Source: Escherichia coli
GTDB lineage: Bacteria > Pseudomonadota > Gammaproteobacteria > Enterobacterales > Enterobacteriaceae
Reading direction: 5' to 3' (one strand)
NCBI RefSeq assembly: GCF_003018255.1
Contig: NZ_CP027440.1
Length of the DNA stretch: 64,000 nt
Positions 55,478-61,038 of this stretch are shown piece after piece. Below the pieces are notes generated by a model, which saw nothing but the letters and a program-made list of their open reading frames with translations, was not told the origin of the DNA and did not search any database. The position numbers and the translations under genes were made by a program. Every line of letters starts with the position of its first letter. Positions within the stretch are counted from its first letter, which is position 1.

Positions 55478-56933
55478 ATGAGCGGAAAACCAGCGGCGCG
55501 TCAGGGAGATATGACTCAGTATGGCGGTCCCATTGTCCAGGGTTCGGCAGGTGTAAGAATTGGCGCGCCCACCGGCGTGGCGTGCTCGGTGTGTCCGGGC
55601 GGGATGACCTCGGGCAACCCGGTAAATCCGCTGCTGGGGGCGAAGGTGCTGCCCGGCGAGACGGACCTTGCGCTGCCCGGCCCGCTGCCGTTCATTCTCT
55701 CCCGCACCTACAGCAGCTACCGGACGAAGACGCCTGCGCCGGTGGGGATTTTTGGCCCCGGCTGGAAAGCGCCTTCTGATATCCGCTTACAGATACGCGA
55801 TGATGTACTGGTACTCAACGACAACGGCGGACGGAGCATTCACTTTGAGCCGCTGCTGCCGGGTGAGGCGGTGTACAGCCGCAGCGAGTCCCTGTGGCTG
55901 GTGCGTGGCGGTAAGGCAACGCAGCCGGACGGCCACACGCTGGCACGGCTGTGGGCGTCGCTGCCGCCGGATATCCGGTTAAGCCCGCATCTTTACCTGG
56001 CGACCAGCAGCGCACAGGGGCCGTGGTGGATACTGGGGTGGTCTGAGCGGGTGCCGGGTGCTGAGGACGTACTGCCAGCGCCGCTGCCGCCGTACCGGAT
56101 GCTTACCGGGCTGGCGGACCGCTTCGGGCAGACGCTGACGTACCGGCGTGAGGCCGCCGGTGACCTGGCCGGGGAAATCACCGGCGTGACGGACGGTGCC
56201 GGGCGGGAGTTCCGTCTGGTGCTGACCACGCAGGCGCAGCGGGCGGAAGAGGCCCGTAAACAGCACACCGCTTCCTTATTTTCCCCTGACACCCCCCGCC
56301 CTCTTTCAGACTCTGCGTTCCCCGACACACTGCCCGGTACGGAATACGGCCCCGACAGGGGCATCCGTCTTTCGGCGGTGTGGCTGATGCACGACCCGGC
56401 ATACCCGGAAAGCCTGCCCGGTGCGCCACTGGCGCGGTACACGTATACGGAAGCCGGTGAACTGCTGGCGGTATATGACCGCAGCAATACGCAGGTGCGC
56501 GCTTTCACGTATGACGCGCAGCACCCGGGCCGGATGGTGGGGCACCGTTATGCGGGAAGGCCGGAGATGCGCTACCGCTACGACGATGCGGGGCGGGTGG
56601 TGGAGCAGCTGAACCCGACAGGCCTGAGTTACCGCTACCAGTATGAGCAGGACCGCATCACCATCACGGACAGCCTGAACCGGCGAGAGGTGCTGCATAC
56701 AGAAGGCGGGGCCGGGCTGAAGCGGGTGGTGAAAAAAGAACTGGCGGACGGCAGCGTCACGCACAGCGGGTATGACGCGGCAGGAAGGCTCACGGCACAG
56801 ACGGACGCGGCGGGACGGCGGACAGAGTACGGCCTGAATGTGGTGTCCGGCGATATCACGGATATCACCACGCCGGACGGGCGGGAGACGAAATTTTACT
56901 ATAACGACGGGAACCAGTTAACGGCGGTGGTGT
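55478..56933 (+). pseudogene. rhsD: Rhs protein, N-terminal part (PAAR-like N-terminus and start of YD-repeat core), interrupted by an IS element
   Basis: Product MSGKPAARQGDMTQYGGPIVQGSAGVRIGAPTGVACSVCPGG...; reading frame runs into IS sequence and stops at 56971. Confidence 0.85.
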
Positions 56934-56967
56934 CCTTGACCCACGATATTCAGACAGTCGTTGTATC

Positions 56968-57849
56968 TTAAGTTGACGTTACCCGCTGACGTCGATATTC
57001 CCTTGGTGAGAGATAACCTAACGCACTATGCGGATGGGTTTCATTGTAATGCTCGATCGCCACTGCAAGGTTATGCAATGCCGTTCTTACATTCGGTTTC
57101 GGCATGAACGCGATGTAGTCTTCTTTCATCGTTTTCACGAACCTTTCTGCCATTCCATTGCTCTGAGGGCTACTGACTGCCGTTGTGCAGGGCTCCAGAT
57201 TCAACTCTCTGGCGAACTGCCGTGTTTCATGAGCTGTATAAGCCGAACCGTTATCAGTCAGCCACTGGATTGGCCGTTCCGCTCCTTTATCGCCAAAGCG
57301 TTTTTCTATTGCTCCTAACATGACATCCTGCACCGTTGCTTTGTCATAACCTCCCGTGCTTGCGGCCCAGTCTATGGCTTCACGATCGCAACAGTCCAGT
57401 GCGAACGTGACACGCAGTTTTGCGCCATCATCACAACCGAACTCAAAGCCATCGGAACACCAGCGCTGGTCGCTTTCCTTCACCGATATTCGGCCTTTAT
57501 GTTCCCGCTGCGGCCGTGAAGGTTTGTCATGTAACAACAACAGGTTATTTTCGCTCATTATCCGATAAACGCGCTTTGCATTCACGAACGGCACTCCTTT
57601 GTTACGGGACTGTCGTCTGAGAATGGCCCAGACACGACGATAGCCATATGTCGGCATATCGCTGATGATATCAAGGATACGTGCTAACACTTCCGCATCC
57701 GCAGCCTCATCACATCTGCGACGACGTTTATTCGGCTTATTACCAGATGTTTTCATCCGTTGTGCCAGTTGCGCACGCGACACGCCCAGAATACGGCTTA
57801 CCAGGGTTATTCCTTGTCCGTTGGCAACAAGGGCGCATGCGCTATCCAT
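56968..57849 (-). CDS. IS3-family transposase OrfB (DDE integrase core)
   Basis: Product contains ...WCSDGFEF...[12 protein letters not shown]...WLTDNGSAY...HPHSALGY..., IS2 InsD-like. Confidence 0.85.
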
Positions 57850-58232
57850 TTTCGCGACTGACCATACTCCACCGCTTCTTTGAGGATCTCAACTTCCATG
57901 GTTTTCTTACCCAGCAAGCGCTGTAACTCTTTTATTTGTTTTATAGCGGCAGCCAGTTCTGAGGCAGGAACGACATCCTCTCCGGCAGCAACAGCAGTGA
58001 GACTTCCTTCCAGATATTGTTTTTTCCACTTAAACAACAGGCTGGGCTGAATACCATGCAAACGCGCCACATGGGACACCGTCATACCGGGTTCCATTGT
58101 CTGCTGAATAATGGCGATTTTTTCCTGAGGAGTTTTACGTTTACGAAGCTCCTGCCCCAGCAAAATTCCAGTCATCTCAAAATTAGCACTAGTAGACATA
58201 TATCCAAGCCTATCTCTTATTTTAAGATACAT
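57807..58232 (-). CDS. IS3-family transposase OrfA (HTH)
   Basis: Product contains ...[43 protein letters not shown]..., IS2 InsC-like. Confidence 0.85.
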
Positions 58233-58263
58233 CCACTGTCTGGCGTTTCAAGGGGCCGGTTCA

Positions 58264-61038
58264 CAGTTAACGGCGGTGGTGTACCCGGACGGGCTGGAGA
58301 GCAGCCGGGCATATGATGAGCTGGACAGACTGGTATCGGAGACATCGCGCAGCGGGGAGACAGTACGCTACCGCTACGATGACGTGCACAGTGAGTTACC
58401 GGCGACGACAACGGATGCGACGGGCAGCACCCGGCAGATGACCTGGAGCCGCTACGGGCAGTTGCTGGCCTTCACCGACTGCTCGGGCTACCAGACCCGC
58501 TATGAATACGACCACTTTGGTCAGATGACGGCGGTCCATCGTGAGGAAGGCATCAGCACGTACAATACCTATAACCCGCGCGGCCAGCTGGTCAGCCGGA
58601 AAGACGCACAGGGCCGTGAAACGCGGTATGAATACAACGCCGCAGGCGACCTGACTGCCGTTATCACCCCGGACGGCAACCGGAGCGAGACACAGTACGA
58701 TGCGTGGGGAAAGGCGGTCAGCACCACGCAGGGCGGGCTGACGCGCAGTATGGAGTACGATGCTGCCGGACGTGTCATCAGCCTGACCAACGAGAACGGC
58801 AGTCACAGCGACTTCAGCTACGATACGCTTGACCGGCTGGTACAGCAGCGCGGCTTTGACGGGCGGACGCAACGTTATCATTATGACCTGACCGGAAAAC
58901 TCACGCAGAGTGAAGATGAGGGGCTTGTCATCCTCTGGTACTACGATGAATCGGACCGTATCACTCACCGCACGGTGAACGGCGAACCGGCAGAGCAGTG
59001 GCAGTATGATGGCCACGGCTGGCTGAGAGAAATCAGCCACCTGAGCGAAGGCCACCGTGTTGCCGTCCACTATGGCTACGACGATAAGGGCCGTCTGACC
59101 GGGGAGCGCCAGACGGTGGAGAACCCGGAGACGGGGGAACTGCTGTGGCAGCATGAGACGAAACAGGCATACAACGAACAGGGGCTGGCAAACCGCGTCA
59201 CGCCGGACAGCCTGCCGCCGGTGGAGTGGCTGGCCTATGGCAGCGGTTATCTGGCGGGCATGAAGCTGGGCGGGACGCCGCTGCTGGAGTACACGCGCGA
59301 CCGCCTGCACCGGGAGACGGTGCGCAGCTTCGGCAGCATGGCAGGCAATACAGCCGCATATGAACTGACCAGCACTTACACCCCCGCAGGCCAGTTACAG
59401 AGCCGGCACCTGAACAGCCTGGTGTTTGATTGTGACTATAACTGGAATGACAACGGCGACCTGATGCGCATCAGCGGCCCGCGACAGACGCGGGAATACG
59501 GCTACAGCGCCACGGGCAGGCTGGAGAGCGTGCGCACCCTCGCACCGGACCTGGACATCCGCATCCCGTATGCCACCGACCCGGCGGGCAACCGGCTGCC
59601 GGACCCGGAGCTGCACCCGGACAGTACACTCACAGTGTGGCCGGATAACCGAATCACCGAAGACGCGCACTACCTGTACCGTTACGATGAATACGGCAGG
59701 CTGGCGGAGAAGACGGACCGCATCCCGGCGGGTGTGATACGGACGGACGACGAGCGGACCCACCACTACCACTACGACAGCCAGCACCGCCTGGTGTTCT
59801 ATACGCGGATACAGCATGGCGAGCCACTGGTCGAGAGCCGCTACCTTTACGACCCGCTGGGCCGCCGGACGGGTAAACGGGTGTGGCGTCGCGGGCGTGA
59901 CCTGACAGGATGGATGTCGCTGTCGCGTAAACCGGAGGAGACGTGGTACGGGTGGGACGGCGACAGGCTGACGACGGTGCAGACTGACAGCACGCGTATC
60001 CAGACGGTGTACCAGCCGGGAAGCTTCACACCGCTCATCCGCATCGAAACAGACGTGACCGAACTGGAGAAAGCGCAGCGGCGGAGCCTGGCGGAGAAGC
60101 TCCAGCAGGAAGGGAGCGAGGACGGACACGGCGTGGTGTTCCCGGCTGAACTGGTGCGGCTGCTGGACAGGCTGGAGGAAGAAATCCGGACAGACCGCGT
60201 GAGCAGTGAAAGCCGGGCGTGGCTTGCGCAGTGCGGGCTGACGGTGGAGCAACTGGAAAAACAGGTGGAGCCGGAATATACACCGGCGCGAAAAGTTCAT
60301 CTTTACCACTGCGACCACCGGGGCCTGCCGCTGGCGCTTATCAGCGAAGACGGCAATACGGTGTGGAGCGCGGAGTATGATGAATGGGGAAACCTGCTTA
60401 ATGAGGAGAACCCGCATCATGTGTATCAGTCATACCGTCTGCCGGGGCAGCAGCATGATGAGGAGTCGGGGCTGTACTACAACCGGAACCGGTACTACAA
60501 TCCGTTGCTGGGACGATATATTACTCAGGACCCGATTGGGCTGGCGGGGGGATGGAGTCTGTATGCGTATCCGCTGAATCCGGTGAATGGTATTGATCCA
60601 TTAGGATTAAGTCCTGCAGATGTAGCGTTAATGCGAAAAAAAGAACAATTAAACCATCAAAGAGCATGGGATATATTATCTGATACTTATGATGATATGA
60701 AGAGATTAAATTTAGGTGGGACTGATCAATTTTTCCATTGTATGGCATTTTGTCGAGTGTCTAAATTAAATGACGCTGGTGTTAGCCGATCAGCGAAAGG
60801 GCTGGGTTATGAAAAAGAGATTAGAGATTACGGGTTAAATATGTTCGGTATGTACGGCAGAAAAGTAAAGTTATCCCATTCTGAGATGATTGAAGATAAT
60901 AAAAAAGACTTGGCTGTAAATGAACATGGGTTGACATGTCCATTAACACAAGATTGCTCAAATAGATGTATTGATTATATTAATCCAGAGCATAAAAAAA
61001 CGATAAAGGCTTTACAAGATGCTGGCTATCTCAAGTAA
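58264..61038 (+). pseudogene. rhsD: Rhs protein, C-terminal part (YD-repeat core, PxxxxDPxGL motif, variable C-terminal toxin domain 60610..61038)
   Basis: YD repeats (YRYD, YEYD...), motif [11 protein letters not shown] at 60580-60609, then abrupt drop to AT-rich sequence encoding a 143-aa tip. Confidence 0.85.

Follow-up and report, generated by a model that had tools for sequence, protein, structure and literature searches.

In the window, by which is meant the whole 64-kb stretch of DNA that was analysed, the toxin gene rhsD is inactivated by a genuine and recent insertion of an IS element and not by an artefact. The insertion is very probably an ordinary transposition by an element with a stagger of 15–16 bp that is normal for its clade, three additional bases of the flanking repeat being the terminus of the element itself. 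A duplication of 15–16 bp is normal for this element and its relatives, as compared with 5 bp for IS2.

The interrupted rhsD locus and the boundaries of the element

The first-pass annotation described a 19-bp direct repeat around an insertion in an Rhs gene, and the 19-mer CAGTTAACGGCGGTGGTGT was indeed found as an exact match at two places only in the window, 56915–56933 and 58264–58282 (chance expectation 0). As had also been proposed, an IS3-family, IS2-like element lies between them and interrupts rhsD, with OrfA and OrfB encoded on the minus strand (Table 1). The 3' part of rhsD is cut off from its start, and when the element and one repeat copy were deleted in silico it joined the 5' part continuously in a single open RhsD frame of 1403 aa starting at 55478, in agreement with the earlier prediction of an in-frame gene. 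The empty site predicted in this way matches, at 100% identity, uninterrupted genes annotated as 'RHS element core protein' in NZ_AP045067.1 and NZ_AP045072.1, where the repeat is present as a single copy, and comparison with these alleles thus bore out the empty site suggested at first. It can be found at an identity of at least 90% in 3514 genomes, with a median of two matching places per genome. The gene is flanked by ybbA and ybbP upstream and by ybbC and mnmH downstream; the small ORF at 61019–61510 is presumed to be the cognate immunity gene, from its position and by analogy with how Rhs loci are generally organised.

Table 1. Features of the interrupted rhsD locus, with positions counted from the first base of the window
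Feature	Position	Strand	Remarks
rhsD 5' part, Rhs core protein, N-terminal 484 codons	55478..56930	+	includes the left duplication copy; ORF 55478..56971; NCBIfam RHS_core positions 1-480
Left 16-bp target-site duplication	56915..56930	.	CAGTTAACGGCGGTGG on the + strand
Complete IS, IS3 family, probably IS2 subgroup, ISEc48-related, 1333 bp	56931..58263	-	5'-TGAACCGG...AAGGACA-3' on the minus strand; ends TG...CA
Right terminal inverted repeat (IRR)	56931..56971	-	right end conserved throughout the copies; outermost 3 bases read TGT (+ strand)
orfB, DDE/rve catalytic domain	56968..57849	-	overlaps orfA in the -1 frame
orfA, HTH regulator, maximal ORF	57807..58232	-	likely start further in, 58199 or 58175
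Left terminal inverted repeat (IRL)	58222..58263	-	begins 5'-TG
Right 16-bp target-site duplication	58264..58279	.	second copy of the 16-mer
Native rhs TGT	58280..58282	+	also in uninterrupted alleles; equals the terminal TGT of the IS, 56931-56933
rhsD 3' part: Rhs core, RHS-associated core domain, C-terminal toxin tip	58280..61038	+	NCBIfam RHS_core 487-1261 and Rhs_assc_core
Small downstream ORF, ybbC-type (PRK14710)	61019..61510	+	context, outside the IS

The termini of the element were set where identity to independent copies stops. More than 400 near-identical full-length copies are present in E. coli genomes, and the independent copies aligned (six, then fourteen) all read TGAACC...AAGGACA and diverge immediately beyond. 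None of the copies compared deviates from the end ...GGACA. That the terminal T and A are target bases was ruled out, since both are invariant next to unrelated flanks and so belong to the element. By the same alignment bases 56931–56933 (TGT, the ACA-3' terminus on the strand of the element) are part of the element, and with the right terminus at 56931 three of the 19 repeat bases are IS end, leaving a true duplication of 16 bp. Judged from these alignments, the apparent 19 bp is a 16-bp duplication plus a 3-bp chance match between the IS terminus and rhs. The earlier description accordingly holds in part: the repeat is exact at both positions but is 16 bp long as a target duplication, and the element of ~1330 bp that was said to cut the frame at 56933 is present but measures 1333 bp and extends over 56931–58263. 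The duplication had also been called well beyond the 3–5 bp typical of the family, with precise termini leaving 3–5 bp named beforehand as the result that would speak against it; because 16 bp remain outside the termini, this claim stands.

The orfA of the rhsD copy has lost codon 3 through an in-frame deletion of 3 bp. In identical copies the RefSeq annotation joins orfA and orfB as one CDS by a 'programmed frameshift', and from this annotation an OrfAB fusion product is predicted. The exact OrfB protein was found on 882 contigs and scores 211 bits against the NCBIfam model NF033516, 'IS3 family transposase' (cut-off 160), and Pfam rve, HTH_21 and HTH_Tnp_1 are recorded for a protein identical to that of the element; an alignment with IS2 shows conserved D, D and E motifs. 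The element is placed in the IS3 family by the homology of its transposase, by the overlap of orfA with an orfB in the -1 frame and by imperfect TG...CA inverted repeats. It departs from the 3–5 bp duplication typical of that family, with 15–16 bp at ~35 independent sites; IS3-family classification rests on the transposase, the short duplication being a typical feature only.

Duplication length in other copies and in relatives

At 11 independent sites of the rhsD-type element the duplication is 15 bp in seven cases and 16 bp in four, every duplicated sequence being different, and ~24 further sites with 15–16 bp were found for its relatives, which span more than 10 genera. The first-pass suggestion of a one-off anomaly, whether non-canonical, recombinational, engineered or an artefact, does not survive this comparison, as 15–16 bp flanks essentially every intact copy of the element as well as the relatives. 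Among the latter, a Klebsiella/Enterobacter-type shows 15 bp at nine sites and 16 bp at four, a Ca. Sodalis-type 15–16 bp at ~10 sites, and the one clean ISEc48-type insertion examined (L054) 16 bp. When all Sodalis flanks were paired against each other, the only matches were nine of 15 bp and three of 16 bp. The empty site in yddB could be reconstructed at 100% identity with a single repeat copy. No strong target consensus emerged from the flanks; the base immediately 3' of the duplication tends weakly towards T. Flanking repeats are lacking in roughly half the copies of the relatives, mostly in Ca. Sodalis, which fits rearrangement and decay, partly demonstrated.

When the same script was run on canonical IS2 as a control, 13 of 16 copies came out at 5 bp, and an IS2-like element at 65% identity also gave 5 bp. 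The IS2 copy adjoining one of the loci (L009) is truncated by IS1 after ~105 bp and its duplication is unreadable there. Three of four homologues at 65–70% identity are chimeric, with a right end of IS2 type, have no duplication and are uninformative on its class; a protein-pattern scan of phage contigs returned nothing at 64%–76% identity. Inside the clade apparent 5-bp duplications were seen in two cases only, L026 and L027. The latter is structurally complex, and its empty site had no match in the phage collection, the phase of the reading frame being its sole support. The long and the 5-bp class, at 62–65% identity, are set apart by only 21 positions in OrfB and 14 in OrfA, together with tiny linker indels.

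Comparison with named elements

No name specific to the element is given in public sources; members of its cluster are labelled only 'IS3 family transposase', and its NCBIfam matches are IS2-like but below cut-off. The closest named relative is ISEc48 (PGAP 'IS3-like element ISEc48 family transposase'), which belongs to the same clade and shares the 1336-bp layout, the TG...CA ends and the subterminal core of the inverted repeats, while the outer 20 bp of both repeats differ. The DNA identity of 88.4%, which was measured against a copy carrying the ISEc48 family annotation and not against the ISfinder reference (OrfB 88–89%), is under the usual level for the same IS, by convention roughly at least 95%, and on sequence identity the rhsD element is not ISEc48.

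The genes of the rhsD element are arranged as in IS2 (orfA followed by orfB in the -1 frame, with a DDE/rve domain), its length is similar (1331 bp in IS2, 1333–1336 bp in the rhsD-type clade), and its best NCBIfam matches are the IS2 models. The proteins are colinear (OrfA ~70% and OrfB ~62% identical), and natural chimeras with IS2-type right ends occur. The differences lie in the left end, which starts with TA in IS2 while the rhsD element has TG...CA at both ends, in a C-terminus that is 9 aa shorter, in small indels in the linker between the HTH and catalytic regions, and in the 5-bp duplication of IS2. An isoform of IS2 proper was ruled out by these identities and by scores below cut-off against both the model 'IS2 repressor TnpA' (OrfA, 4.4e-60, 201.6 versus 229) and the TnpB model (411.6 versus 597). 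As for the IS2 subgroup, the closest relatives are IS2-like transposases, and its 5-bp duplication (PMC3299598) appears in the clade in the two probable cases only.

The IS481, IS1202 and eukaryotic IS481EU elements also have related DDE transposases and TG...CA ends, and their duplications fall into discrete length classes, ~4–6, 15–17 and 24–29 bp, in some cases inside a single family (PMC10045372; bioRxiv 10.1101/2022.12.17.520857; PMC10132070). These classes of ~5, 15 and 25 bp are separated by steps of ~10 bp, one turn of B-DNA, and the IS3 family was set apart from them as fixed at 3, 4 or 5 bp (PMC10045372), its lengths being termed 'relatively conserved' (PMC10045372; PMC3299598). Among such classes the rhsD-type clade falls in that of 15–16 bp, with probable rare 5-bp events. 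Membership in IS481 or IS1202 was ruled out by an IS481 model score below cut-off (100.8 versus 224) and by the two-ORF frameshift organisation, as those families have a single-ORF transposase.

The Klebsiella-type relative, present on 1280 Klebsiella plasmids, could be ISEcl1, a 1336-bp IS3-family element. The name ISEcl1 is used on Klebsiella/Enterobacter plasmids, e.g. in ISEcl1-mcr-8.2; plasmids CP079783 and CP058962 are cited in this connection (PMC8969419). The literature found on ISEcl1 makes no mention of its direct repeats, nor did that searched on IS3-family, IS2-group, ISEcl1 or ISEc48 elements mention a long duplication; the long duplication of the clade is apparently undescribed so far.

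Origin and meaning of the long duplication

The insertion is most probably a recent transposition of the 1333-bp element into the E. coli chromosomal rhsD, presumably by the DDE copy-out/paste-in route assumed from the literature on IS3 and IS2 (PMC3299598). The two 3'-OH ends of the element would attack the two strands of the target at points 16 bp from each other, and the bases in between would then be duplicated by gap repair. As 15–16 equals 5 + ~10.5, the most likely mechanism is one with a spacing wider by one helical turn, in which the scissile phosphates engaged by the transpososome would still share one face of the helix, but lie a turn further apart than in IS2. The two members with an apparent 5-bp spacing suggest that the clade may switch between spacings. 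It is quite possible, if still short of probable, that the clade switched from 5 to 15–16 bp with occasional use of 5 bp, and that helical-turn quantisation extends to the IS3 family, set by the ~35 class-specific residues and the tiny linker indels.

A length of 15–16 bp may also be typical of the clade without active sites placed one turn wider, through a bent or looped target, another oligomeric state or sequential joining of the ends. We regard this as a lesser but serious possibility: so few protein positions part the two classes, and both lengths seemingly occur within one lineage, which speaks for a complex that is flexible and not fixed in its architecture. The sequence data fit all of these geometries, and the step of ~10–11 bp needs explaining in each of them.

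A true 19-bp duplication, made with a 19-bp stagger by a variant 1330-bp copy without its last three bases, is very unlikely. Within the window 1330 + 19 and 1333 + 16 fit the sequence equally, but every other copy ends in ...AAGGACA and none of the ~35 insertions of the element and its relatives has a duplication longer than 16 bp. A chance match of 3 bp is expected at 1/64 per site, i.e. ~0.5 cases in 35 sites, and a copy lacking precisely the terminal ACA is the less parsimonious assumption. Still less credit is given to mis-assembly at a repeat or to cloning, with the duplication as a joining artefact. IS copies are classic points of mis-assembly, and none of the 5426 complete E. coli genomes searched contains the precise rhsD::IS junction, so that no independent assembly of it is available; against this, 10 other loci in independent assemblies match the structure, with precise TG...CA ends and a perfect 15–16 bp duplication, excision gives back a known allele to the base, and a mis-join would not yield a duplication of the length characteristic of the element. 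Recombination or gene conversion among rhs/YD-repeat sequences without transposition, conceivable as Rhs genes contain internal repeats and occur in several copies, with the median of two matching places per genome, is scarcely credible, as the 19-mer occurs in the 64 kb at the two IS junctions only, is single-copy in uninterrupted alleles, and repeats of equal length flank the element where the target is not rhs, for instance in yddB and plasmid genes.

The duplication length in the IS3 family has been treated as a family constant (3, 4 or 5 bp) that guides both tools and readers in bounding elements, and a clade with 15–16 bp is prone to wrong boundaries or to be flagged as an anomaly, as happened in rhsD. 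Its relatives are abundant on Klebsiella/Enterobacter resistance plasmids and one is massively expanded in an insect endosymbiont, and for this reason correct boundaries matter when tracing rearrangements. Duplication length also reflects how far apart the two sites of strand transfer lie in the transpososome, a question that has until now come up solely with IS481- and IS1202-type elements. Close homologues (62% identity) whose lengths are one helical turn apart, together with probable switching within the lineage, would give a simple genetic handle on that spacing. If quantised duplication lengths do occur in the IS3 family, the transposases of IS2 and of this clade, between which natural chimeras exist, would lend themselves as a pair to experiments on what determines how far apart the two strand transfers occur.

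The interrupted gene and the bounds of the element

The 19-mer CAGTTAACGGCGGTGGTGT occurs exactly twice in the 64-kb window (0 expected by chance), at 56915-56933 and 58264-58282, as stated in the first-pass annotation. Complete E. coli genomes contain over 400 full-length, nearly identical copies of the intervening 1330 bp, with an alignment that is 3 bases longer, and the termini were set from 14 copies with flanks together with one found by exact-protein look-up. All examined copies share the sequence 5'-TGAACCGGCCCC...GGGTCAAGGACA-3' and have unrelated flanks directly outside it, which sets the bounds listed below; the IS3-family element earlier recognised in rhs thus remains, with its length (~1330 bp) and point of entry (56933) slightly corrected.

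Features of the IS inserted in rhsD and of its flanking repeats
Feature	Position	Strand	Remarks
IS	56931-58263	minus	1333 bp; bounds from comparison of copies
ORF	57807-58232	minus	Overlaps second ORF; best NCBIfam match IS2 TnpA, under curated cut-off
OrfB ORF	56968-57849	minus	Best NCBIfam match IS2 TnpB, under curated cut-off
Target-site duplication copies	56915-56930 and 58264-58279		16 bp duplicated target

Consequently the bases 56931-56933 of the 19-mer are IS terminus and 58280-58282 are native rhs bases matching the IS end by coincidence (p = 1/64 per site, unremarkable with ~35 sites examined), so that end mapping leaves a duplication of 16 bp, shorter than the 19 bp first proposed, still far longer than usual and not reduced to 3-5 bp. 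The window by itself would allow a true 19-bp duplication, made by a copy without its three final bases, but this is contradicted by the invariant IS terminus and by the lack of any duplication above 16 bp elsewhere.

The transposase of two ORFs is intact, its exact OrfB sequence is present on 882 contigs and OrfB passes the general NCBIfam 'IS3 family transposase' model (211 bits, cut-off 160). The homology of its transposase, the arrangement of its genes and its termini place the element in the IS3 family; though IS2-like it is distinct from IS2, and it is a relative of ISEc48, not ISEc48 itself. Compared with the commoner 1336-bp form it has lost one codon in-frame near the start of orfA (AAC, Asn3 of OrfA; window 58190-58199, IS position about 70), a 3-bp deletion also found in the copies L002 and L011, and the copies L297 and L298 are likewise 1333 bp.

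With ybbA and ybbP on its upstream side and ybbC and mnmH on its downstream side, the interrupted gene lies at the RhsD locus of an E. coli chromosome; in the RHS_core model its two fragments cover positions 1-480 and 487-1261. In-silico removal of the IS and one 16-bp copy gave, in line with the earlier prediction of an in-frame rhs, a single open frame of 1403 aa with a PAAR-like N-terminus, YD repeats, Rhs-associated core and C-terminal tip. The reconstructed empty site (458 bp) matches uninterrupted 'RHS element core protein' genes of two genomes at 100% identity and is found at ≥90% identity in 3514 genomes. A second insertion of the same IS lies in yddB and has a 15-bp repeat; its reconstructed empty site agrees at 100% identity with intact yddB of many genomes (≥99% identity in 2791 records). 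Since both empty sites match intact alleles, the repeats are target sequence duplicated at insertion.

An assembly artefact or engineered insertion, suggested in the first-pass annotation and in keeping with a rhsD::IS junction that lacks an independent assembly, is not supported, as ten further genuine insertions show the same structure to the base and excision gives back a known allele. Recombination among rhs repeats is excluded, the sequence being single-copy in uninterrupted alleles and the repeat length being the same at non-rhs targets. The gene rhsD is inactivated by ordinary transposition. Further downstream (60600-61038 and 61019-61510) the Rhs tip, following a DPxGL-type motif, overlaps a ybbC-type ORF (PRK14710), and the two look like a putative toxin/immunity pair; in the split gene the toxin part is without the N-terminal delivery region, and the putative immunity gene is still intact.

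Long duplications in copies and relatives

The long repeat is no anomaly of one insertion. For the window IS 11 distinct sites were found with perfect repeats abutting the TG...CA ends, 15 bp in seven and 16 bp in four, every sequence being different, and relatives behave alike. The one site without a repeat holds an old, conserved copy which adjoins an integrase gene, has an 11-bp deletion in the left inverted repeat and is probably immobile. This copy is located by a P4-type integrase gene in many E. coli (L012, L015-L019, L298; L013/L014), and in L013 and L014 it is interrupted again by an IS110-family element.

A degenerate left-end pattern, searched for in phage and prophage contigs and in one genome of each species, revealed relatives of three types. 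The first is ISEc48-type (DNA identity about 88%), the second (about 78%; Klebsiella-type below) is common in Klebsiella, Enterobacter, Pantoea and Yersinia, and the third numbers about 80 copies in Ca. Sodalis endolongispinus. With both ends placed by conserved anchors, 32 of 69 distinct full copies carry a 15- or 16-bp repeat; this total takes in a 14-bp score, probably due to a left-end anchor placed 1 bp off, and a 16-bp repeat with two mismatches. Copies without a repeat are mostly from Sodalis, and when all Sodalis left flanks were compared with all right flanks, matches appeared only at 15 bp (nine) or 16 bp (three), some of them joining different or internally deleted copies, which fits rearrangement after insertion. 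Many Sodalis copies (L126-L199, NZ_JAFJYC010000001-3) are internally deleted (1245-1330 bp) or lack duplications, and the expansion to ~80 copies is of a kind typical of a recently host-restricted symbiont. Apart from a weak preference for T on the immediate 3' side of the repeat, no target consensus was found among the duplicated sequences. A Klebsiella-type left end was also present on a tiny scaffold (L122, NZ_DS264362.1, 856 bp) of the [Ruminococcus] torques ATCC 27756 assembly, most likely enterobacterial contamination.

Probable 5-bp duplications in the clade and the limits of the trait

Two Klebsiella-type insertions, L026 and L027, have no 15-16 bp repeat but 5-bp repeats. In L026 ATGCC is found on both flanks; when one ATGCC is kept, the target gives a gap-free alignment over the junction with HNH endonuclease genes of Klebsiella phages, and the frame is restored only if the excised length is 2 modulo 3. 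In L027 (3279-4642) a 23-bp duplicate of the IS's right terminus comes after the copy, and beyond this duplicate stands GATAC, the same 5 bp as before the left end; the frame behaves as in L026, no uninterrupted homologue was found in the phage collection, and a self-targeted insertion close to the end with later recombination might account for the structure. With a chance of ~1/1024 for each exact 5-bp match at a fixed boundary, and only two cases, 5-bp duplications probably occur within the clade.

Canonical IS2, taken through the same procedure on phage contigs, showed 5 bp in 13 of 16 copies and no repeat in the other three, in agreement with the literature (PMC3299598). IS2 and the window IS are colinear in both proteins and differ in sequence (62% identity in OrfB, 70% in OrfA); in protein searches clade members lie at ≥74% and IS2 at 62-64%. 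Among four homologues at 65-70% three are chimeras with a clade left end, an IS2-type right end and no duplication, and the fourth, a separate 1336-bp element, is bounded by IS2-like TA...CA ends and flanked by a clean 5-bp repeat. This distribution indicates that the long duplication tracks the TG...CA clade. The columns separating the two classes number 14 in OrfA and 21 in OrfB, to which come minor indels in the linker that precedes the catalytic domain, and three of the substitutions flank the catalytic glutamate; all these differences go along with phylogeny and are candidates at most.

In the natural chimeras (L280-L282, L288, L289) the left end and 5' half are Klebsiella-type and the right end is IS2-type, and since none has a flanking duplication they fit an origin by recombination between adjacent elements; L288 has, directly upstream, the opening 24 nt of an IS2-like left end. 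In three unrelated records an IS2 end lies 2, 1 or 3 bp beyond the right terminus of a clade element (L007 about 1580-1600; L009/L290; L295), the left end in direct orientation in L007 and L009 and the right end inverted in L295, which looks like targeted insertion of IS2 beside a related inverted repeat or an IRR-spacer-IRL-type junction (right and left terminal inverted repeats).

A possible mechanism and the place within the IS3 family

The window IS has precise ends, a 15-16 bp target duplication and no target specificity. Following IS3-family and IS2 transposition (PMC3299598), it would be copied out as a circle, the abutted junction of which would expose both 3'-OH ends for attack on the two target strands, and gap repair would convert the stagger between the attacks into a direct repeat. 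A stagger of 15-16 instead of 5 differs by 10-11 bp, one turn of B-DNA, which would put the two phosphates on the same helix face with one more turn between them; for IS481, IS1202 and IS481EU, whose duplications fall into classes of roughly 5, 15 and 25 bp, the same calculation has been made (PMC10045372). The favoured reading is that the target-binding geometry of the transpososome sets the active sites one turn further apart, and the same transpososome may occasionally use the ancestral spacing. A target that is bent or looped, or a transpososome in another oligomeric state, would account for the data just as well.

Duplication length is the one respect in which the clade departs from the description of the IS3 family, where each subgroup is said to have its own conserved length (IS407 4 bp, IS2 5 bp, others 3 bp; PMC10045372, ISfinder in 2022), and these lengths have been set against the discrete long classes of IS481 and IS1202 (PMC10045372). 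Full-text literature searches and papers on ISEcl1 and ISEc48 gave no mention of a long duplication in the IS3 family, and ISfinder may already record it. A clade of IS2-like elements regularly making 15-16 bp duplications is apparently undescribed for the family; the rhsD event itself is ordinary, and the general interest lies in this clade-wide rule of 15-16 bp.
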